Below, in pieces: positions 1,071 to 26,539 of a stretch of DNA of 61,719 bases. This stretch comes from an uncultured bacterium (GTDB lineage Bacteria > Desulfobacterota > Deferrimicrobia > J040). Each line of letters starts with the position of its first letter. The stretch's first letter is position 1. The notes under the pieces are model-generated. The model worked only from the letters and a program-made list of their open reading frames with translations, did no database searches and had not been told where the DNA came from. The translations under genes and the position numbers were made by a program. The stretch spans positions 1 through 61,719 of the forward strand of contig CAYFXN010000005.1 in NCBI GenBank assembly GCA_964347065.1. Reading direction: 5' to 3'.

Positions 1071-2183
1071 TCATTCAGAGATGGCTAAATGGACCATCCT
1101 CGCGAAATTGAAGACGAGAACGCCATTGAATTCCCTCCCTGAATTCTCCATCATCAGAGCGATAATATCTTTGATTTCCCAATCTTTTTTGTACGGCCTC
1201 TTGCTCCTCAGAGCATCGAAAAAATCGGCAATCTGGACGACCTGACTCACGAGATGCTGCTTTTTTCTTTTATTGTTAAGCTTGGGATATCCTGTGCCGT
1301 CGTATCTCATGTGATGTTCGAAGGCAACGATCGGAGCGAGTTGTGTTAAGCCTTTCATACCAACCAGATAATTTGCTCCAGTAATCGTGTGGCGGGTTAC
1401 TTCCTGAAATTCCTCATCGGTGAGCTTGCCTTTTTTATTGAGGATATCTCTGGATAGGAACAGTTTTCCAACATCGTGAAGCAGGGCCGCAATGCCAATT
1501 TCGTGAAGCATTTCGTCGTTTATCCCGAGGGCCTCTGCCTGAAACATGGAAAGAACAGCCACGTTCGCTGCGTGAGTGTACGTATACTCGCTGTGCGATT
1601 TCACCGGGCTGATGAGCTTGAGAAAATGTGCTTCCCGCTTGAAGGTTATGAAAAAGTTGACCACGATCTCTTCGAGGCCGGCCACGTTTAACTTCTTGAA
1701 GGGAGATATGGAATTGAATATTTCCTTTGCCATCTCCAGCTGGGCTGCCGTTGCATTGCCCAATCCATCCGCTTCGGCTTCAGCGAGGGGCTGCAATTCG
1801 CCGGCCCGTAGTTCGACAACGCCCGTTTTTATGTGGGGATATGATCGAAACGGCTTGTTTTTATCGGTAAAATCCTCAATAAAACCGGCAAATTCCGGGG
1901 CCGTCAATCCTTTTAAAAAATCTATTCGCGATACTCCTTTTCTCTTCATCCGCTTTTTCAGGTTGTTTACGAGGCTTCCTTCATCGCGGGTGGGGCTTTT
2001 ATTGACGATAAGGTCATCTTCGACCATCATTATTTCAAAACTTTCGTTTTCCGCGAAGAATTCTGTGATGGTGGACAGGGATTTACCGATGAGGGCTTCT
2101 ACCGATGGATGCTCGGGCGAATAGAGAGAGCAGGTTGAGACGGCAGCCATGAACGTGGAGAGAAAGTTCTTATGGGGTTCCAT
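1071..2183 (-). CDS. HD-GYP phosphodiesterase with N-terminal YxxxHP domain (pair 1)
   Basis: YTYTHAANVA, LLHDVGK, EHHMRYDGTGYP, ADFFDALRSKRPYK. Start reassigned to ATG at 2183 (MEPHKNF) with a GGGGG RBS upstream. Confidence 0.88.
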   Translation of the reverse strand: MEPHKNFLSTFMAAVSTCSLYSPEHPSVEALIGKSLSTITEFFAENESFEIMMVEDDLIVNKSPTRDEGSLVNNLKKRMKRKGVSRIDFLKGLTAPEFAGFIEDFTDKNKPFRSYPHIKTGVVELRAGELQPLAEAEADGLGNATAAQLEMAKEIFNSISPFKKLNVAGLEEIVVNFFITFKREAHFLKLISPVKSHSEYTYTHAANVAVLSMFQAEALGINDEMLHEIGIAALLHDVGKLFLSRDILNKKGKLTDEEFQEVTRHTITGANYLVGMKGLTQLAPIVAFEHHMRYDGTGYPKLNNKRKKQHLVSQVVQIADFFDALRSKRPYKKDWEIKDIIALMMENSGREFNGVLVFNFARMVHLAISE

Positions 2184-4356
2184 GGTAGTTCCCCCGTGAG
2201 GTGGATTCAATTTTTTCACCACTTTTTAACAGTTTCAACGACTCCCCTCTTATAACATCGTTTTTTGATTTTGCCCCGGCTTCTGCGAGGCCCCGCACGT
2301 CATTTAAGGGGTAATGTTTCAATGTTTTGAAAACCTCTTCCCTGAGCCTCTCTATTGCACTTTTAAATAGAATGCTCTTTGAAAACATGAGATTTTTTAA
2401 AGCCCCAATTGCAGAGGGATCTCCGATCTTTCCCAGGACAGCAACCAGCGGGATCTTATCGAGATAATCTGCTCCGGTGACACCCTTTTTCTCCACCATC
2501 CTGAGTAGTTCGGGAACTGCTTCTTTGATCTTGAATGTTCCCGATAGGGTTATCGCCTGATTTACGAGTTTTTTTGAATTTGATCTGATATTTTTCATCA
2601 CCATATCTATGCCGTCCCTCTCACCTTTTTGAAGGAGGCATTTAATCGCTTCGGTACTTACTTGGATGTTTTCATTCTGACAGTAGGGTTTAACGTGAGG
2701 AATGACTTCCTTATCACCGCACTCTGTCAGGATAAATATCATGTTTCTTTTCACGAACCACCTATCATCGTCGAGTCGTTTTATCGCTTCTGAAACTGAT
2801 CTTTTACCGAAACCGGTGATCAACGTAATGATGAATCTCCTCGTTGCTTTGGACTCCTCATCGAATAAGACATCGAAGAGGTACGGCAGTATTCTCTCAC
2901 CGTAATAATTGCAGAGAACAGTGGTTTCATCGCGATTTAGTCTCCCCATGATCCTTAAAGATTCAACGAATCTAACAATGAATTCCTCTGAGTGAAATTG
3001 TTCGATAATGGTGGCAAAGAGATCCGGAAAAATTTTCTTTGCCTCGCTCTTTTCTATCCCTTTTATTATATTGAGGGCTTCGAAGTACTGACCAGTTTCG
3101 ACGTAATGTTGACACTGTTCGAGCAAAATTGGGATCTGTTTCTCCATGTCTTCATGAGAGACCATATTTGTACTTATAAGTTCGAGAAGAAATCGGTAGA
3201 AGGCCTTTTCGAGAGCCTCATATTCACATGCTTCTTTCAATTCTTTCATTTCTTCCTGGGCCAACTTTCCCGGTTCAAATTCAAGGATTTTCTGGATCTC
3301 ACGGTTATATTTCTCTGTAACGAATGCCTTGAAGTCACCCTTGCTGAGAAGGTTGATGATATCGGGTGACAGTAATATGTCATCGAGAATCGGTGAATCT
3401 TCGATAAACAAGTTTAACGGGTCATCTCTGCCATCAATTTTCGAGAACTTATCTATAAGGTTTTTAAGGGCTTCGGGTACCATGATCTTGTGTTCATTGA
3501 CGACGCTTAAAAGTTCTATAACTCTGTCGACAGATACTTCTCCGAGAGCTTTTTCAATCGGGACCATATCGGTTGAGATATTTTTCATAGTGGAAGAGAG
3601 AAACTGTTGTTTGAGTTCCGGACGGAGAGAATGTATGAAATCGAGCAATTTTTTCAGCTCAGTATCAGAAAAAAAACGTTCTGAGGAACTTCGTATGTAT
3701 GTGGTTATTACCCTGTCGTATGATTCCTCTTTTAAGTAACTGACCCCTTTCTCATTCAGCAGGGATGCGAGCATTTCCGGTGGGATTTTCCGTATTATCT
3801 CCGATCCTTCATTTTTCTGAAGGGTGCCTTCGAGGAGGCCGAAGAGGTAAAGTTCCCACAATTTTTTTTTCTCCTCGCCAGCCTCGGTCTTTCCCTCCTC
3901 GAAGATAAATGAGTCGTAATCTACGAAATCCAGGGTAATATTTTTAAGATTGAAACTTTTGCGGGATTCTTTTATCTCCTCGATAGATGTTTCGGAGGAC
4001 GTTTCAGAGAGGAACCGGTGAAATGCGTAAATATCATCTCTTGATAGGTTACGCGGGAAGGTAACGGAAGCGATACCGAGGCCGCTCAGGTACGTGGCGA
4101 AGTCCCGGTAAACGGGGTTTTTTTTGTCCAGGTAATGATTGTCAATCACCAGAGTGTCTTTCGCGATACCGAGGGTTATCTTCGGGCGTATATCGAAGAG
4201 CTTTTGCAACAGATCGTATGCCCGGTCAAGGGACCGTTGCACGGAGGGATGGTCTTCCGGATATATCGCGACATTTCTCCTCGAGATGTTGAGTTCGATT
4301 ATCGAATCGCTGAGCAACCGTGCATCGAGGGGTAATTTTTCCCTGCTATCCGCCAT
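2170..4356 (-). CDS. HEAT/ARM-repeat protein with N-terminal YPxxHP domain (pair 1)
   Basis: C-terminal half has PBS-lyase-type HEAT repeats (LDDDRWFVKRNMIFIL, STEAIKCL, LGKIGDPSAIGAL). N-terminus AIYPEDHPSV. ATG at 4356. Stop overlaps the HD-GYP start by 14 nt. Confidence 0.85.
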   Translation of the reverse strand: MADSREKLPLDARLLSDSIIELNISRRNVAIYPEDHPSVQRSLDRAYDLLQKLFDIRPKITLGIAKDTLVIDNHYLDKKNPVYRDFATYLSGLGIASVTFPRNLSRDDIYAFHRFLSETSSETSIEEIKESRKSFNLKNITLDFVDYDSFIFEEGKTEAGEEKKKLWELYLFGLLEGTLQKNEGSEIIRKIPPEMLASLLNEKGVSYLKEESYDRVITTYIRSSSERFFSDTELKKLLDFIHSLRPELKQQFLSSTMKNISTDMVPIEKALGEVSVDRVIELLSVVNEHKIMVPEALKNLIDKFSKIDGRDDPLNLFIEDSPILDDILLSPDIINLLSKGDFKAFVTEKYNREIQKILEFEPGKLAQEEMKELKEACEYEALEKAFYRFLLELISTNMVSHEDMEKQIPILLEQCQHYVETGQYFEALNIIKGIEKSEAKKIFPDLFATIIEQFHSEEFIVRFVESLRIMGRLNRDETTVLCNYYGERILPYLFDVLFDEESKATRRFIITLITGFGKRSVSEAIKRLDDDRWFVKRNMIFILTECGDKEVIPHVKPYCQNENIQVSTEAIKCLLQKGERDGIDMVMKNIRSNSKKLVNQAITLSGTFKIKEAVPELLRMVEKKGVTGADYLDKIPLVAVLGKIGDPSAIGALKNLMFSKSILFKSAIERLREEVFKTLKHYPLNDVRGLAEAGAKSKNDVIRGESLKLLKSGEKIESTSRGNYHGTP

Positions 4357-4712
4357 AAGCAATTAAAGGCAACCGATAATTTTCGTTCAATGCATCCTTT
4401 CATTCGCTCGACTAAGGTGAGCTCACGGCATCTCCTTTCAAGAGAGCCCGGCCATGATGAGCGTTCCTCTTTCCTTTCTTTATCGGATTCGGGGGATGAT
4501 TGTTGAGCCCCTCGGCACCAGGGAGCGCAACGGGGTATAGCCGGAGGACCACCTCCAGGATACCGCTCTGTTTTTTCCAGCGATTCTGACAAAGTGGAAG
4601 GGGAACTTTCGAGAGGACAAACCGTGTCAGACATCGGTTTTGTTATGGTATTATATGAAGAAATTCCGTGCATATGATCGGAAGAGAAGAACGTTGGGTT
4701 CGGAGCTATCCG

Positions 4713-6279: not shown

Positions 6280-7638
6280 ATGAAGGTATTCACCGGAATA
6301 AGATTTAAACTTTCGCTCGTCACGCTCGTGCTCATTTTGTTTGTCACCGGAGCATCTTCTTTTATTGTCACCAATATAATGGATAGTTTCCTACTCAAAG
6401 AGCTCGTCAGGAGGGGTTTTTCCATCACCGGGAGCGCCTCCACAGCGGCAGGGTACAGCATCCTTTCGAACGACAGGCTTGCGCTGGATAATCTTGCTTC
6501 GAAGATTAGGCAGTATCAGAAAGACATCGTGTATGTGGCGATGGTTGATGACGAGGGCGTCATCAAGGCGCACAGTGATCTGGAAAAAATGGGAGAGCTT
6601 TTTATAGAGAGGGAAAGCGAGGTCATACGCAGAGAAGAAGACGGGTCGACGGTGAAAAAGGTCTTGAGAATGGGTACCATGTGCTTCGAATTCCGAACGC
6701 CCATCATTTTTGCAGATAAAGACCTGGGAGCGATCTATCTCGGAATAGCAGAACAGACTCTCATTGCATCTCAGGAGGAAGCAAGAAAAAAGATCATTCT
6801 CGTATCGGGAATAATTCTCACACTCGGAGTGGCCGGGGTATTTTTCCTTTCCGGTTTCATAACTACCCCGGTAAAGCGCCTTATGGAAGGCGTGTTGAAA
6901 ATGAAATTGTGGGAGTACAGGAGTGAAATCAAAGTGGTTTCCCGGGATGAGCTTGGAGAGCTGACGCGTAATTTCAACGAGATGGCGAACACGATAATGA
7001 ACCAGAAAGAAAAGCTCGAGCTCTCCGCCAGGGAACTGGAGGATGCGTATGTTGCAACAGTGAGGATTCTCGCAGCGGCGATTGATGCGAGGGATGAGTA
7101 TACCTTTGGTCATTCCGAAAGAGTTGCGAAGATATCTGTTCTCATCGGCAGTAAGAGCGGCCTCTCCAATGCCGAAGTGCGGGATCTTGAGATGGTATGC
7201 CTCTTTCACGATGTGGGAAAGATAAAAACCCCTGACAAGATTCTCCATAAGATGGCGCCCTTAAATGATGAAGAGTACAGATTGATGATGAAACATCCCG
7301 AGGACGGGGCAGACATCCTCCGGCTGGCAAATTCGCTGCAGAAACACGTCAAAGCTGTCCTCCACCATCATGAATGGCATAACGGGAAGGGATACCCTCA
7401 CGGGTTGAAAGACGGGCAGATTCCCTATTTTTCTTCTATTATTGCCATCGCAGACGCCTACGATGCCATGACATCATCGCGACCATACCGGAAAGGGATG
7501 TCAAGGCAGGAGGCGATGCAGGAGATTGTCAAGTATAAAGGCGTCCAATTCAATCCGGAAATAACAGACGTGTTCGTCGAAATACTGAAAGATCCGAAAT
7601 ACGCCAAAAAACTGGAAAGAAAAGGGGTCTATGGATGA
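6280..7638 (+). CDS. Membrane-bound periplasmic-sensor / HAMP / HD-GYP c-di-GMP phosphodiesterase
   Basis: Two TM segments, HAMP (SRDELGELTRNFNEM), AAIDARDEYTFGHSERVA, LFHDVGK, HHEWHNGKGYP, DAMTSSRPYR. GGGGAGG RBS. Confidence 0.9.
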   Translation: MKVFTGIRFKLSLVTLVLILFVTGASSFIVTNIMDSFLLKELVRRGFSITGSASTAAGYSILSNDRLALDNLASKIRQYQKDIVYVAMVDDEGVIKAHSDLEKMGELFIERESEVIRREEDGSTVKKVLRMGTMCFEFRTPIIFADKDLGAIYLGIAEQTLIASQEEARKKIILVSGIILTLGVAGVFFLSGFITTPVKRLMEGVLKMKLWEYRSEIKVVSRDELGELTRNFNEMANTIMNQKEKLELSARELEDAYVATVRILAAAIDARDEYTFGHSERVAKISVLIGSKSGLSNAEVRDLEMVCLFHDVGKIKTPDKILHKMAPLNDEEYRLMMKHPEDGADILRLANSLQKHVKAVLHHHEWHNGKGYPHGLKDGQIPYFSSIIAIADAYDAMTSSRPYRKGMSRQEAMQEIVKYKGVQFNPEITDVFVEILKDPKYAKKLERKGVYG

Positions 7639-22067: not shown

Positions 22068-23069
22068 ATGATTGCAAAAAACAGATCATGGCAGTCGATA
22101 GAGGGAGTAAGAATCGGAAAGGCCGTTTCCGCAAACGGGCTCACGGGGACCTCGGTTATGATTTTCCCCGATGGGGCGGTTGCTTCCGCAGAGGTACGGG
22201 GTTTTGCAACGGGAACCCGGCAGATGGATTCCCTCTCGCTGACCCACACGGTGGAAAAAGCCTACGCCCTGGTTGTTTCTGGCGGGTCCGTATTTGGCCT
22301 CGATGCGGCATCGGCGGTTGCACGTGAGTTGAACCTGAAAAACATCGGGCTTTTCACGGGTATTACCAGCATCCCCGTGGTTCCAACAGCCGTGATATAT
22401 GACCTGTCATTCCCGGAAAATGTAGGAACCAATTACGGAGAGTTGGGGAAAAAAGCCATTGACGATGCTTTCTCAACGGCTGTCGGGGAGGAGGGGGGTG
22501 GTGCCGGTGCCGGTGCATCGGTTGGCAAAATTCTCGGCATAGAGCGGGCGACGAAAACTTCCAAAGGACTTGCCGCTCGATCGGTGAAGGAAGGATATCA
22601 TGTTGGTGCCATGGTGGTTCTCAATGCCTTTGGAGATGTATACGACAAAAAGGGTGGCATAGTTGCAGGTGTCAGGCGCATGGACGGGAAGGGATTCGAT
22701 AATTCAAGGAAGCTGTTCATGGAGGGGCACACGAGGAAACCCTTTGGCGTTATGGACAGTACCACCGTGTCGGCTGTGGTGACGGACGCAGATCTCGGAA
22801 AGAAGGAACTTTTCATCGTTGCTTCTCAAATCAACAACTTTCTCGCGTCACATATACGGCCTTACGGCTCCATTTTCGACGGAGATATCGTATTTTCTCT
22901 CTCCACGGGGAAAAGGGGAAAGGTGGATAATCTCTTGAAATTTATTGTTATGGCGGAAGAGGTGGTTTATGAATCTCTGATGGTGGCCGTTTTTTCCGCA
23001 AAATCCTCAGGCGGTTTGCCCTGTGCAAGGGAAATATTGGGAGAAGGAGGAGAAATTGGAAGAGATTGA
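22068..23069 (+). CDS. P1/S58 family peptidase (DmpA-like)
   Basis: EVRGFATGTR, VVSGGSVFGLDAASAV, VPTAVIYDL, GAGAGASVGK, FDGDIVFSLST. Confidence 0.88.
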   Translation: MIAKNRSWQSIEGVRIGKAVSANGLTGTSVMIFPDGAVASAEVRGFATGTRQMDSLSLTHTVEKAYALVVSGGSVFGLDAASAVARELNLKNIGLFTGITSIPVVPTAVIYDLSFPENVGTNYGELGKKAIDDAFSTAVGEEGGGAGAGASVGKILGIERATKTSKGLAARSVKEGYHVGAMVVLNAFGDVYDKKGGIVAGVRRMDGKGFDNSRKLFMEGHTRKPFGVMDSTTVSAVVTDADLGKKELFIVASQINNFLASHIRPYGSIFDGDIVFSLSTGKRGKVDNLLKFIVMAEEVVYESLMVAVFSAKSSGGLPCAREILGEGGEIGRD

Positions 23070-23631
23070 AAGGATACTGAACATCCTCATTCAAGATGAG
23101 GTCGCTCCCGTGAAAGATGAGGCGGTTAAATCCCTCGGCAAGTTCTCTGCGAGAAGGAGATTTCCTGAGTTTATGGGGGTACTTACTTCCGGAAAACCTG
23201 AAGACCGGATGAGGGTTGTTTACGCTGCAGAGGAGATGGGAGGAGATGAGGGTCTCAAGCTTCTCATGCAAGCCGTTGAAGACAGCGCCGATGATGTGAG
23301 AGGCGCAGCGATAAGGATTCTCGAGAATTACCCCCGGGCAGAGGTGTTGAAGACTCTCGTGGATCGGCTTCCCCAAGAAAAGGGCTTCGTTCTGGGAAAC
23401 CTGATAAGCGTTCTGGGCCGGTCCGGGAGAAAGGAGCTCGCCCCCATTCTGACACGGTTCATAAGTCACCCTGACACGGAGATACAGGCAAGAACGATCG
23501 AAGCTCTCGGCCATATAGGAACTGCAGAGGACCTGAAAGAGATAATCGGAAAAGCTGTTTCAGAGAGTCCGTCAGTTCGCAAGGCAGTGGCATTTGCACT
23601 CGGAGCTATCTCCTTAAGCCACGGATCTTGA
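23056..23631 (+). CDS. HEAT-repeat (PBS lyase-like) protein
   Basis: About five HEAT repeats (DDVRGAAIRIL, IQARTIEALGHIG, VRKAVAFALG). Start reassigned to TTG at 23056 behind AGGAGG. Confidence 0.8.
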   Translation: MEEIERILNILIQDEVAPVKDEAVKSLGKFSARRRFPEFMGVLTSGKPEDRMRVVYAAEEMGGDEGLKLLMQAVEDSADDVRGAAIRILENYPRAEVLKTLVDRLPQEKGFVLGNLISVLGRSGRKELAPILTRFISHPDTEIQARTIEALGHIGTAEDLKEIIGKAVSESPSVRKAVAFALGAISLSHGS

Positions 23632-24990
23632 AGGGTTTGCGTTCTCAAGGAGGGGGTTGACGGTGGTGACGATGCTCCTGTTGAACTTCCCCGTTTTCGG
23701 GTCTTTTTCTATAAGGTCTATGTGAACGGGAAAGTCCAGATTCCTGCCTTCTGCGTCGGTGAGCACGATTACCTTCGGTCGAGCCGAATCCTCAGTGTTT
23801 TGGGCTGATACGACGGCCACCTCGTCTGTATCGAGCTTCACCATCGTACCGATCGGGTAAATACCGAGAATTTTTATCAGGACCTTGATCATCGCCGGGT
23901 CCAGAGACTTGCCCGCCATTTTTGTCATCACTTCCAGGGATTCTTTCGGGGTTCTCGGTTTCTGATATGTTCTGAGCGTTGAGAGGGCGTCGTAACAGTC
24001 TGCAATGCTCACGATCTGGCTGTACGGTTCCATTTTGTATCCGGGCTCGATTTTGGGATATCCGGAGAGATCGAAACCCATGTGGTGTTCCCGTACGATC
24101 TTGCCGGAAACGGGGTTTATGAACTCCATTTCGATCAATATCCTGTGTCCTTCGTCGGGATGTTTCTTGATCTCTTCAAATTCCTCAAGTGTCAGGGTCG
24201 ATGGTTTTCTGATGAGGTCGAGAGCGACCTGGGTCTTCCCTACGTCGTGGAGGAGTCCCGCGACCCCTATGTCGATCTTTTCGCTTTCAGATAGGGAGAG
24301 GGATTCAGCGATAGTGAGTGAGATAACCCCGACGTTAACGGAATGGGTGTAGGTATATTCATCGTAGTTCTTTATCATCGTGAGGGCAAGCATGGCATCC
24401 TGATTTTTCTTGAGCATGCCCGACATGTCCTGGACCACTTTTCTCGATTCACTTCCCGAGGGAATTTTACCGAGGCGGATGTCGTTCATTGCCGCCGTAA
24501 CCGCCGAAATTGCGTTCTCGTAAATTTCCTTCGCTGCGGAGAGATCATCCGGTTCCTTGTCTTTCTCGACGGTGACGACCACGATCTTTTTAATATCCTC
24601 GATCTGGAAAAGGTTTCTCACCTTCTGCTCGCTTAATATGCTCCCGCGATTTGCGTGAAGTATCGATATGAAGCTCTCCAGTTCGCTTTTTTTCAATCCC
24701 CGGTGGAAGACAAGTGCCTCGATGCCGCATTCTCCGAGAGATTTGATGAATAGTTCTAAAGAAGAGGTGAGTTGAAACAGGGGAGTTCCTTCGAAAACGA
24801 GCGTTTCGTCCACGATGGCCAGCGCGAGTTCATTGAGTGATTCGAGCAGGGAAGTTATGAGATCGTAAGCTTGAGCTATAGTTTTTTGCACGAGAGGATG
24901 GTTTTCGGGGTAAAGGCCAAGGTTTTTGAGGGCGCCCCCCAGAGCTTTCGTTATTTCCTTTATCTGTGCCTCAAGCTCCATCCTTTCCAT
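23614..24990 (-). CDS. HD-GYP phosphodiesterase with N-terminal YPxxHP domain (pair 2), RxxQ variant
   Basis: GLYPENHPLV, YTYTHSVNVG, LLHDVGK, EHHMGFDLSGYP, DALSTLRTYQ, C-terminal YPIGTMVKL extension. Confidence 0.88.
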   Translation of the reverse strand: MERMELEAQIKEITKALGGALKNLGLYPENHPLVQKTIAQAYDLITSLLESLNELALAIVDETLVFEGTPLFQLTSSLELFIKSLGECGIEALVFHRGLKKSELESFISILHANRGSILSEQKVRNLFQIEDIKKIVVVTVEKDKEPDDLSAAKEIYENAISAVTAAMNDIRLGKIPSGSESRKVVQDMSGMLKKNQDAMLALTMIKNYDEYTYTHSVNVGVISLTIAESLSLSESEKIDIGVAGLLHDVGKTQVALDLIRKPSTLTLEEFEEIKKHPDEGHRILIEMEFINPVSGKIVREHHMGFDLSGYPKIEPGYKMEPYSQIVSIADCYDALSTLRTYQKPRTPKESLEVMTKMAGKSLDPAMIKVLIKILGIYPIGTMVKLDTDEVAVVSAQNTEDSARPKVIVLTDAEGRNLDFPVHIDLIEKDPKTGKFNRSIVTTVNPLLENANPSRSVA

Positions 24991-26539
24991 GGTCCATCCT
25001 CTCGAGAATTTTGGCTGCCTCCTTCCTACATATGCTATCGGAACCTTTGGTCAAATTTTCAAGTGCTTCATGTGCTTTTTCGGATTTTATTTTTCCGATG
25101 CCCTGGACGGCAAACATTTTGAGCTCCTTCAATCTCCTTGGCTTGAACAGCGGGTTGTACAGGGCGATGCTCTGTAATACAACTACCGCATTCTCGGTTC
25201 CGATGTTTTTCAGCGAATCGATAATCTCCTTCGAGATCCTGTAGTCAGGATAGACGAACTTTCTCCTTCCGAACCTCTCTTTGAGGATTTGTATGGCCGA
25301 ATCGTCTTTTTTCGTTCCCAAGGCTGCCACAGAAATAGTCGCTATGTTTTCGTCGGCATCGAAACAGCATTGACCAAGAGCCGTAATCGATATGGGGCTC
25401 TGGATTTTTGAAAGCGCTTTGATCGCCTCTTTCTTAACCCGCGGGTCGGGGTTCTTGAGCGTGTTTGCTATGTGCTGGGCAACCTCCTCTTTCCCAATTC
25501 CTCCCAGAATGGTGATCATGTTTCTGATGACGTACCATCTCGTGTCATCGAGGAACTTTACGATATACGGGATGGCAGGGTCCCCTATCTTGGTAACCAG
25601 ATCAACCATCGCTTTCCGGACGATGAGGTTCTTTTCATCAGTGAGCGCTGCAAGAATTTTTACCACGCCCGCTTCCCCTATAATGAGCAGGACGGTCTGG
25701 GCTTCCACCCTCTCCTGAAGCGATTTGCTCCCGAATTTTTTCACGTAAAGGTCGATAATATCCTCATCGACGAGCTCTTTGATACCCGTGATGGCGAGAT
25801 CTTTGATTTCTTCGTTCCCACCGGGAGGATACTCCGTGTGGTTGGAAAAGATCTTGATGGCCTTTTCGGCTTGGAGCAGTCGCTCCTTACGTGTCAGCTC
25901 ATCGATTTTTTTCAAAATCTGCTGAAGAGTATCTCTGTATTCTCCCGATTCAGCCGTTTGCGCCAGTTTGGACAGGAGCGTGTCGATATCGTCTTCCTCA
26001 ATTTTCATCTCCTTATCAATGGGCACTTTTTCAAAAATGATATGTTCATTTTCCTGTGGTGCCGGCTCCTTCTCCTTCTTGAGCTCCTCCATCAATTTTT
26101 CATAATCAACCCTGTTTATCCAGATTTTTGAAATTCTCATTCCTATGAGGATCCTCTCAAGCCCGCCCTTATTCATAATCTCGTCGGGATCGAGAGAAAT
26201 AGCTTGCAAAAAATCCCTCATCTCATCAAGTGTTACACCGGGTAGGAGGATGAGTTTGTTGGTTCTGCGAACGAAGAGTGCATTTCGAAAATCCGAGATG
26301 GCATCATGCTTTTCGGGAAGTTTTGTTTCACCGACGGTAAGGCTCGGTTTGCTCACGGAAATTTCGATTCCCCCGTCAGGGGGGGGGACATCATCTATCG
26401 ACTGGCAGATTTTCTGTAATATTTTTATCAGCGAGGGATGGCTTTCCGGATAGAAAGAAACTGCTTTCATCCCCTTCGCCATTTCCGTTACTGCTTTTGT
26501 AATCTTGTCGATGTAGGATTCCCTGTTATCGTCTTTCAA
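24971..26539 (-). CDS. HEAT-repeat protein with N-terminal YPxxHP domain (pair 2)
   Basis: SFYPESHPSL at the N-terminus, HEAT repeats (LDDTRWYVIRNMITILG, DPRVKKEAIKAL). TTG start. Overlaps the HD-GYP start by 20 nt. Confidence 0.85.
   Translation of the reverse strand: MKDDNRESYIDKITKAVTEMAKGMKAVSFYPESHPSLIKILQKICQSIDDVPPPDGGIEISVSKPSLTVGETKLPEKHDAISDFRNALFVRRTNKLILLPGVTLDEMRDFLQAISLDPDEIMNKGGLERILIGMRISKIWINRVDYEKLMEELKKEKEPAPQENEHIIFEKVPIDKEMKIEEDDIDTLLSKLAQTAESGEYRDTLQQILKKIDELTRKERLLQAEKAIKIFSNHTEYPPGGNEEIKDLAITGIKELVDEDIIDLYVKKFGSKSLQERVEAQTVLLIIGEAGVVKILAALTDEKNLIVRKAMVDLVTKIGDPAIPYIVKFLDDTRWYVIRNMITILGGIGKEEVAQHIANTLKNPDPRVKKEAIKALSKIQSPISITALGQCCFDADENIATISVAALGTKKDDSAIQILKERFGRRKFVYPDYRISKEIIDSLKNIGTENAVVVLQSIALYNPLFKPRRLKELKMFAVQGIGKIKSEKAHEALENLTKGSDSICRKEAAKILERMDHGKDGA

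Follow-up and report, generated by a model that had tools for sequence, protein, structure and literature searches.

Which cyclic dinucleotide does an HD-GYP phosphodiesterase degrade when glutamine stands at the place of the lysine or arginine that reads guanine? The question is raised by a contig of an uncultured bacterium of the Desulfobacterota (class Deferrimicrobia; GenBank assembly GCA_964347065.1, contig CAYFXN010000005.1), whose 61,719 nucleotides, taken as a whole, are called the window below. Three HD-GYP proteins are encoded in the window, and the one in question is the 458-residue product of the open reading frame (ORF) 23614..24990 on the minus strand. On balance, we favour the reading that this protein is an active phosphodiesterase with a preference for 3',3'-cGAMP (cyclic GMP-AMP) made by a GGDEF enzyme of the Hypr type, and that it would be the cGAMP-side twin of a second module in the window, which would act on cyclic di-GMP (c-di-GMP). 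The organism itself probably runs a cGAMP pathway.

Glutamine at the base-reading position

The rule that links this residue to substrate choice is already published. According to Wright et al. (bioRxiv 10.1101/600031), R314 and K317 of PmGH recognise one guanine of c-di-GMP, and PmxA, which has R515 and Q518, degrades cGAMP and hardly degrades c-di-GMP, a preference that is reversed by the replacement Q518R. In the same work, Rxx(Q/N) was found in 4.69% of 11,504 HD-GYP domains, and five of the six candidates tested degraded cGAMP, three of them selectively (those of G. metallireducens, B. bacteriovorus (Bd2325, with RxxN) and V. tapetis) and two promiscuously. Galperin and Chou (bioRxiv 10.1101/2021.11.05.467447) name Bd2325, Gmet_3476 and Moth_2495 as Rxx(Q/N) enzymes. 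An initial annotation of the window had stated that Rxx(K/R) reads guanine and that PmxA and Bd2325 have Q and N there, and both publications agree with it. The signature is predictive, not absolute. The protein described here is a further member of this class, from a fresh lineage and with an undescribed architecture.

Direct translation of the minus-strand bases 23962-23973 (AGA ACA TAT CAG) gives R340-T-Y-Q343, a variant of Rxx(K/R). The motif lies inside CYDALSTLRTYQKPR, and the surroundings in the protein read ...SIADCYDALSTLRTYQKPRTPKE.... The initial annotation had read this motif correctly, as it had those of the other two HD-GYP proteins, DALRSKRPYK in 1071..2222 (minus strand) and DAMTSSRPYR in 6280..7638 (plus strand). 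Membership in the HD-GYP family was judged by PF13487 (COG2206), and residues 205-366 (23893..24378, minus strand) match this HD_5/HD-GYP model with E=1.2e-23 and 84.1 bits against a cut-off of 27.2. In a phmmer search against all chains of the Protein Data Bank (PDB), the top match of the protein was PmGH (4MCW). The alignment through the motif is gapless (cydalstlRtyQkpr / vfdaltsdRpyKkaw) and pairs R340 and Q343 with R314 and K317 of PmGH; that is, the comparison with PmGH that had been suggested puts the glutamine exactly at the published selectivity position. The search also aligned RTYQ to RPYR of V-cGAP3.

The source genome (2.4 Mb in 183 contigs, the window being contig C5) encodes nine HD-GYP domains, eight of which have K or R at the selectivity position; the ninth, with Q, is that of 23614..24990. 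An orthologue search using one genome per species returned 80 loci, and the nearest relatives were metagenome-assembled genomes (MAGs) labelled Candidatus Deferrimicrobia, Deferrimicrobiaceae or 'Deltaproteobacteria'. R-x-Y-Q is present in 28 of 28 full-length relatives (loci L028-L055, 34-79% identity), the Desulfuromonadales MAGs L054 and L055 having full-length homologues with RSYQ. A Geoalkalibacter homologue (L056) has RAYR, and more distant homologues have K or R. A tally of full-length orthologues gives Q in 27 of 28. In an alignment of 26 orthologues, Q343 is nearly invariant.

The HD-GYP protein carries a YPxxHP motif in its N-terminal domain, and a maximum-likelihood tree was built from 62 HD-GYP domains of its family. 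The long type forms a group of 37 rows, of which 33 have Q and one each K, R, H and S. Its sister clade is that of the short paralogues, to which 1071..2222 belongs (nine rows, support 100/96), with K or R in all nine. Q needs three changes on the tree, compared with a mean of 20.7 for shuffled labels, and is not a chance substitution. From this separation of Q and K/R in sister clades with so few changes, it follows that the two states have long been held apart, often in one genome. The division of the two HEAT/HD-GYP modules between c-di-GMP and cGAMP, which the initial annotation had proposed, fits this pattern, since the respective orthologue clades keep K/R and Q.

Two further observations concern these loci. 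A second, unrelated HD-GYP protein from the same family of the Genome Taxonomy Database (GTDB) (L187; G063:C7:48800-49400) has the canonical loop HHEQFDGRGYP but reads DVFDALTTERPYQ; therefore, RxYQ arose on more than one HD-GYP backbone within the lineage. The stop-to-stop frame of the HD-GYP orthologue spans 919 amino acids in L036 and 705 in L047, and about 467 elsewhere; the longer frames of these two MAGs could reflect an in-frame fusion of the HEAT partner with the HD-GYP protein, or the lack of a stop codon.

A candidate cGAMP synthase and its distribution

Use of cGAMP by this organism, which the initial annotation had put forward, calls for a synthase, and two kinds had been named for the genome check, Hypr GGDEF proteins and CD-NTases. 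Among the 17 GGDEF matches of the genome, exactly one is of the Hypr type (contig C71, 2081-3457, minus strand). The other half of the check came out negative: PF18144 (SMODS), the sole Pfam model tried for CD-NTases, finds nothing in the genome, and a CD-NTase of the DncV kind was rejected as the cGAMP source.

The published features of Hypr enzymes are Ser or Thr instead of the guanine-specific Asp at the residue numbered 348 in GacA, GGDE[F/Y] and not GGEEF (known as the 'Goldilocks' rule), and a cross-dimer residue other than Arg (PMC6456294). All three are found in the C71 protein. It has Ser348 in NDSYGHLVGS, which is aligned to NDTHGHLVGS of GacA, while the other GGDEF proteins of the genome read ...GD; it has RYGGDEF; and it has LYNSRY with Ser at the position of GacA Y304, a residue that is among those reported for predominant cGAMP producers (PMC6456294). 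The best PDB match of its GGDEF domain is 6D9M, a T4-lysozyme fusion of the Hypr GGDEF domain of G. metallireducens (GacA), which scores 180.7 bits, while the best canonical cyclase scores 116.7 bits. A predicted cGAMP synthase is present in the genome, and together with the RxxQ position it supports the view that the organism may use cGAMP signalling. The lack of any such synthase, which the initial annotation had named as a refutation, is thus not what the genome shows.

Full-length orthologues of the C71 protein are held by 20 of the 23 genomes with close RxxQ orthologues. Ser348, GGDEF and a non-Arg cross-dimer residue occur in all 19 orthologues whose signature region lies in the locus, and the 20th (L127) is cut by a contig end. 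In five genomes with an RIYK homologue, the best GGDEF match is only of the canonical form with Asp, GGEEF and Arg.

For a wider test, two DNA patterns, each of which gave exactly the one true hit in the source genome, were run against a sample of 151 genomes of the phylum. Hits of the Hypr pattern (N-D-x-x-G-H-x-x-G-[S/T], kept only in a GGDEF-like context) occurred in 44 genomes and those of the HD-GYP pattern (D-x-[YF]-D-A-x-x-x-x-R-x-Y-Q) in 35. By patterns only, 26 genomes have both, nine only RxYQ, 18 only Ser348 and 98 neither (odds ratio 15.7, Fisher p=1.6e-10, like the values below without phylogenetic correction). The RxYQ pattern requires D-x-[YF]-D-A and misses Q-bearing members in other contexts; therefore, the pattern-only table is conservative. 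When the eight family members that had been fetched and that have such contexts (DS, DAC, DAA) are added, the corresponding numbers are 31, 12, 13 and 95 (odds ratio 18.9, p=1.3e-12), a table that is mildly biased by the choice of the fetched loci. Counted over 75 GTDB families, the numbers are 16, 4, 6 and 49 by patterns only (odds ratio 32.7, p=2.8e-8), and 18, 5, 4 and 48 with the fetched members (odds ratio 43.2, p=1.8e-9). Note that an 'AG' prefix in the Hypr pattern may stand for Ser or Arg; 20 of 20 spot-checked hits have Ser with GGDE[F/Y]. RxYQ HD-GYP proteins and Ser348 GGDEF proteins are strongly associated, and this evidence does not depend on the published biochemistry.

Some details of the C71 gene may be added. 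The approximately 290 residues upstream of its GGDEF domain have no Pfam match. By eye, the start of the protein (IIFVSTSADE ... LILLASF) resembles a receiver domain that lacks the acidic pocket and the phospho-acceptor Asp. The gene is flanked by hisS/aspS-like ORFs on one side and ComEC-like/uvrC/uvrB-like ORFs on the other, these gene names also having been given by eye.

Catalytic competence and alternative explanations

The metal ligands H216, H248-D249, H277, H302-H303 and D331 align with H189, H221/D222, H250, H276/H277 and D305 of PmGH. In the alignment of 26 orthologues, these ligands, the GYP residues (310-312), the substrate Arg340 and Tyr342 are invariant columns. An AlphaFold2 model built on this alignment has a mean predicted local distance difference test score of 85.2, and its best structural matches by Foldseek are PmGH, Bd1817, PA4781, DvhD and V-cGAP3, the first four at E values of 1e-8 to 1e-6.

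We infer a mechanism in which the base-reading pocket of a metal-dependent HD-GYP phosphodiesterase would have been re-tuned from guanine to adenine. The Lys or Arg that donates a hydrogen bond to guanine O6/N7 (K317 in PmGH) would be replaced by Gln343, which could accept a hydrogen bond from the N6 amino group of adenine; as a result, cGAMP would be the nucleotide that the enzyme linearises or degrades by preference. The substrate would be supplied by the single GacA-like Hypr GGDEF protein of the genome (C71, 2081-3457). The HD-GYP protein would be co-translated with a HEAT-repeat protein that shares its YPxxHP N-terminal domain, and the paralogous module 1071..4362, which keeps RxxK, presumably acts on c-di-GMP. 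The label 'specific' for cGAMP, which the initial annotation had attached to the enzyme, is a prediction.

Several observations weigh against a cGAMP-preferring enzyme. The published screen found one of the six candidates inactive and, of the five RxxQ enzymes with activity, two promiscuous (bioRxiv 10.1101/600031). Within the Q-type clade, four members changed Q to K, H, S or R (L146 in genome G136, L141 in G134, L154 in G133 and L056 in the Geoalkalibacter MAG), yet their genomes carry a Ser348 GGDEF protein; in these genomes cGAMP would be dealt with by a different enzyme, or else the residue carries less weight than has been supposed. The lack of a phylogenetic correction in the co-occurrence statistics belongs here as well. 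As regards catalysis, the third-metal ligand E185 of PmGH aligns to Tyr in the phmmer alignment. Near this Tyr, D210 is invariant and E211 is common in the orthologues, and a shift of the alignment by one residue is possible; in any case, the difference at E185 would bear only on the choice between the binuclear and trinuclear subgroups, not on HD-GYP membership. In addition, the GYP loop reads HHMGFDLSGYP, in which HH, D and GYP are kept and E->M and G->L depart from HHExh[D/N]GxGYP, the full HD-GYP motif according to Galperin and Chou (bioRxiv 10.1101/2021.11.05.467447). Changes of the E->M type are found throughout both module clades (the HH[MLT] form), and the other seven HD-GYP proteins of the genome retain HHE. 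Because the HH[M/L/T] form is common to both module clades, it is a family trait unrelated to the difference between Q and K.

This loop deserves a description of its own. The conserved Glu of HHE...GYP is replaced by Met, Leu, Thr, Ile or Val in both HEAT-partnered HD-GYP clades, and the substitution adjoins the metal-binding His pair. HHMGFDLSGYP lies at 24072-24104 (minus strand), and the loop of the paralogue at 1284-1320 (minus strand); HHMRYDGTGYP is another of the forms seen in the two clades. Loops without Glu are also seen in L138-L157 and L178-L186.

The search for effectors gives another point against the cGAMP reading. The initial annotation had proposed a search for GEMM-Ib riboswitches, and none was found in the genome. 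The single GEMM-I riboswitch of the genome (C80:4893-4969, minus strand, which is L018:1501-1577, minus strand; 44.9 bits) has G at model position 11, which corresponds to G20 of Vc2 (flanking pairs G21-C46 and C22-G45, then A47). GEMM-Ib riboswitches, which respond to cGAMP, carry A20, and the G20 form discriminates against cGAMP (PMC6140456); GEMM-Ib was rejected as a candidate on this basis, and the one GEMM-I riboswitch present is of the c-di-GMP type. Nor was any cGAMP effector found in the genome. If the pathway operates, the absence of GEMM-Ib points to a cGAMP effector of another kind. The GEMM-I riboswitch itself is situated about 380 nt upstream of an ORF (L018, 2..1117, minus strand) that runs off the locus and has a signal-peptide-like N-terminus.

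Three other explanations have to be set against a cGAMP-preferring phosphodiesterase. One is that the enzyme discriminates little between c-di-GMP and cGAMP, so that Q relaxes specificity and does not switch it. The Moorella and Phaeobacter RxxQ candidates degrade both nucleotides, as does Bd2325 with Mn2+ (bioRxiv 10.1101/600031); moreover, the only contacts that read the second base come from main-chain atoms of the KPG motif, and adenine is tolerated by this motif (bioRxiv 10.1101/2021.11.05.467447), and Hypr GGDEF enzymes are themselves promiscuous in vitro (PMC6456294). However, the long-held sister clades with Q and K/R, whose paralogues often share a genome, argue for distinct, selected specificities, and so does the strong co-occurrence of Q with the cGAMP-type synthase; we regard a promiscuous enzyme as unlikely. 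Alternatively, Q could be neutral in an ordinary c-di-GMP enzyme, or the substrate could be another one, such as linear pApG/pGpG, c-di-AMP or a different cyclic dinucleotide. Wright et al. (bioRxiv 10.1101/600031) raised the action of HD-GYP variants on other cyclic dinucleotides, and Hypr GGDEF enzymes accept other purine nucleoside triphosphates (PMC6456294). HdgA, with RxxS, still hydrolyses c-di-GMP (bioRxiv 10.1101/2021.11.05.467447), which speaks for a neutral Q and adds to the points against a preference for cGAMP. On the other hand, no tested HD-GYP protein hydrolyses c-di-AMP (bioRxiv 10.1101/2021.11.05.467447), and a neutral residue is hard to reconcile with the near-invariance of Q in the clade and its association with Ser348 GGDEF proteins. 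This explanation appears to us the least probable of those considered here.

The remaining explanation concerns activity rather than substrate: the protein would be a catalytically weak or inactive HD-GYP, serving as a dinucleotide receptor or interaction module that signals to its HEAT partner. Inactive HD-GYP proteins that act by protein contacts are documented (RpfG, HnoD and ECA3548), as is the receptor DvhD, and the obligate pairing with a HEAT protein that shares the N-terminal domain would suit such a role. With HHE->HHM and G->L, the GYP loop deviates from the consensus by which active HD-GYP proteins are defined, and the HHM loop is the main reason for keeping this explanation alive. 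Nevertheless, none of the His/Asp metal ligands varies in the 26 orthologues, nor does the GYP Tyr or the substrate Arg, whereas the documented inactive forms have lost HD or HH residues, and we consider an inactive receptor improbable.

Known enzymes and the surrounding genes

For comparison with known systems, PmGH served as the structural anchor of the alignment, and PmxA, Bd2325 and Gmet_3476 were compared by their published descriptions. PmxA (MXAN_2061) of Myxococcus xanthus, on which the class of cGAMP-specific HD-GYP proteins ('GAP') was founded, has the same R..Q at the position of PmGH R314/K317, and its genome likewise has a Hypr GGDEF protein, GacB there and a GacA-like enzyme here. 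PmxA is a membrane protein of the Cache-transmembrane-HAMP-HD-GYP type, whereas the 458-residue protein is cytoplasmic, combines an undescribed YPxxHP N-terminal domain with a beta domain at the C-terminus, and shares an operon with a HEAT gene. Within the window, it is 6280..7638 that shares the architecture class of PmxA, but this protein has RPYR and not the Q of PmxA. Bd2325 of Bdellovibrio, Gmet_3476 of Geobacter metallireducens and Moth_2495 of Moorella carry the same Rxx(Q/N) signature. A biosensor screen found the first two selective for cGAMP, although Bd2325 has N and not Q; Moth_2495 is promiscuous.

PmGH of Persephonella marina (4MCW/4MDZ), the reference for c-di-GMP HD-GYP enzymes, is the best match in both sequence and fold. 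Both proteins have the ligands H, HD, H, HH and D as well as GYP and KP(G); they differ in that PmGH has RxxK, HHE, E185 and an N-terminal GAF domain, while the 458-residue protein has RxxQ, HHM and Tyr at E185. The second-best PDB match in sequence is to V-cGAP1-3 of Vibrio cholerae (5Z7C), HD-GYP proteins that degrade 3',3'-cGAMP. These keep the canonical RxxR and are not marked by the Rxx(Q/N) signature, and they serve the DncV pathway, whereas the source genome is without a CD-NTase as judged by PF18144. The Bd1817 family (DUF3391-HD-GYP, 3TM8) has a similar two-domain shape (about 328 columns by Foldseek, template modelling score 0.62 on the target), but the Tyr of GYP is missing from Bd1817, which is presumed inactive and has neither a HEAT partner nor the YPxxHP motif.

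Hypr-GGDEF cGAMP signalling has been studied in few cultured bacteria (Geobacter, Myxococcus and Bdellovibrio), and the map of the phosphodiesterases and effectors that belong to it is poor. The present data place a signature-complete pair of a candidate writer and a candidate eraser in an uncultured lineage, called Candidatus Deferrimicrobia if the nearest MAGs are named correctly. Across the 151 genomes of the phylum, RxYQ as the signature of the eraser goes along with Ser348 GGDEF as that of the writer. What is added to the published rule is the clade-level split of the module between Q and K/R, together with this phylum-wide co-occurrence. The two paralogous HEAT-partnered HD-GYP proteins of one genome, which differ at the selectivity residue, amount to a natural experiment and a clean pair for asking how one residue partitions two signalling channels. 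A broader scenario can be offered tentatively, and with more doubt than belief. A cassette of YPxxHP-HEAT and HD-GYP genes may have been duplicated early in the phylum, giving insulated modules for c-di-GMP (RxxK/R) and for cGAMP (RxxQ, with an added C-terminal beta domain). The Hypr-GGDEF/cGAMP system might then be a second channel that is both ancestral and widespread among Desulfobacterota-type lineages, uncultured Deferrimicrobia among them; it would have a dedicated HEAT-scaffolded complex for degradation or sensing, and effectors other than GEMM-Ib.

The order of genes within the modules is as follows. The HEAT-repeat partner (522 amino acids, with a YPxxHP N-terminal domain; 24971..26539, minus strand) is upstream of the HD-GYP gene 23614..24990 and overlaps its start by 20 nt. 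The order of HEAT gene and then HD-GYP gene is kept upstream of the orthologues in 13 of the 14 inspected loci that hold a family member. Likewise, the paralogous HD-GYP gene 1071..2222 (minus strand, 383 amino acids, canonical RPYK) is preceded by a HEAT-repeat gene of 730 amino acids (2170..4362, minus strand). The two HD-GYP proteins are 27% identical over the N-terminal and catalytic domains, the two HEAT proteins are 25% identical, and the YPxxHP-bearing domain starts all four proteins. Judged by their sequences, the two modules are true paralogues.

The product of 23614..24990 consists of the N-terminal YPxxHP domain, a long helix, the HD-GYP domain and a C-terminal beta domain. The N-terminal domain (residues 1-140; 24571..24990, minus strand) has the invariant motif Y27-P28..H31-P32; in isolation it has no significant Pfam match, DUF3391 matching weakly (E=0.021) on the linker helix. 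The C-terminal domain (residues 376-446; 23653..23865, minus strand) has AlphaFold2 strands at 383-444, and a Pfam search with it in isolation gave no family. The K-type paralogue ends at about residue 370 of the pairwise alignment and is without this domain. The domain was considered as a novelty of the Q clade, which was ruled out: Firmicutes homologues with RVYR align through about residue 429, and the domain is therefore not tied to Q.

The third HD-GYP protein of the window (6280..7638, plus strand) has the architecture sCache-HAMP-HD-GYP and the canonical RPYR. A third, short HEAT-repeat protein of 202 amino acids, without a YPxxHP domain, is encoded at 23023-23631 on the plus strand; its gene is convergent with the HD-GYP gene 23614..24990, and the two overlap tail to tail by 18 nt.

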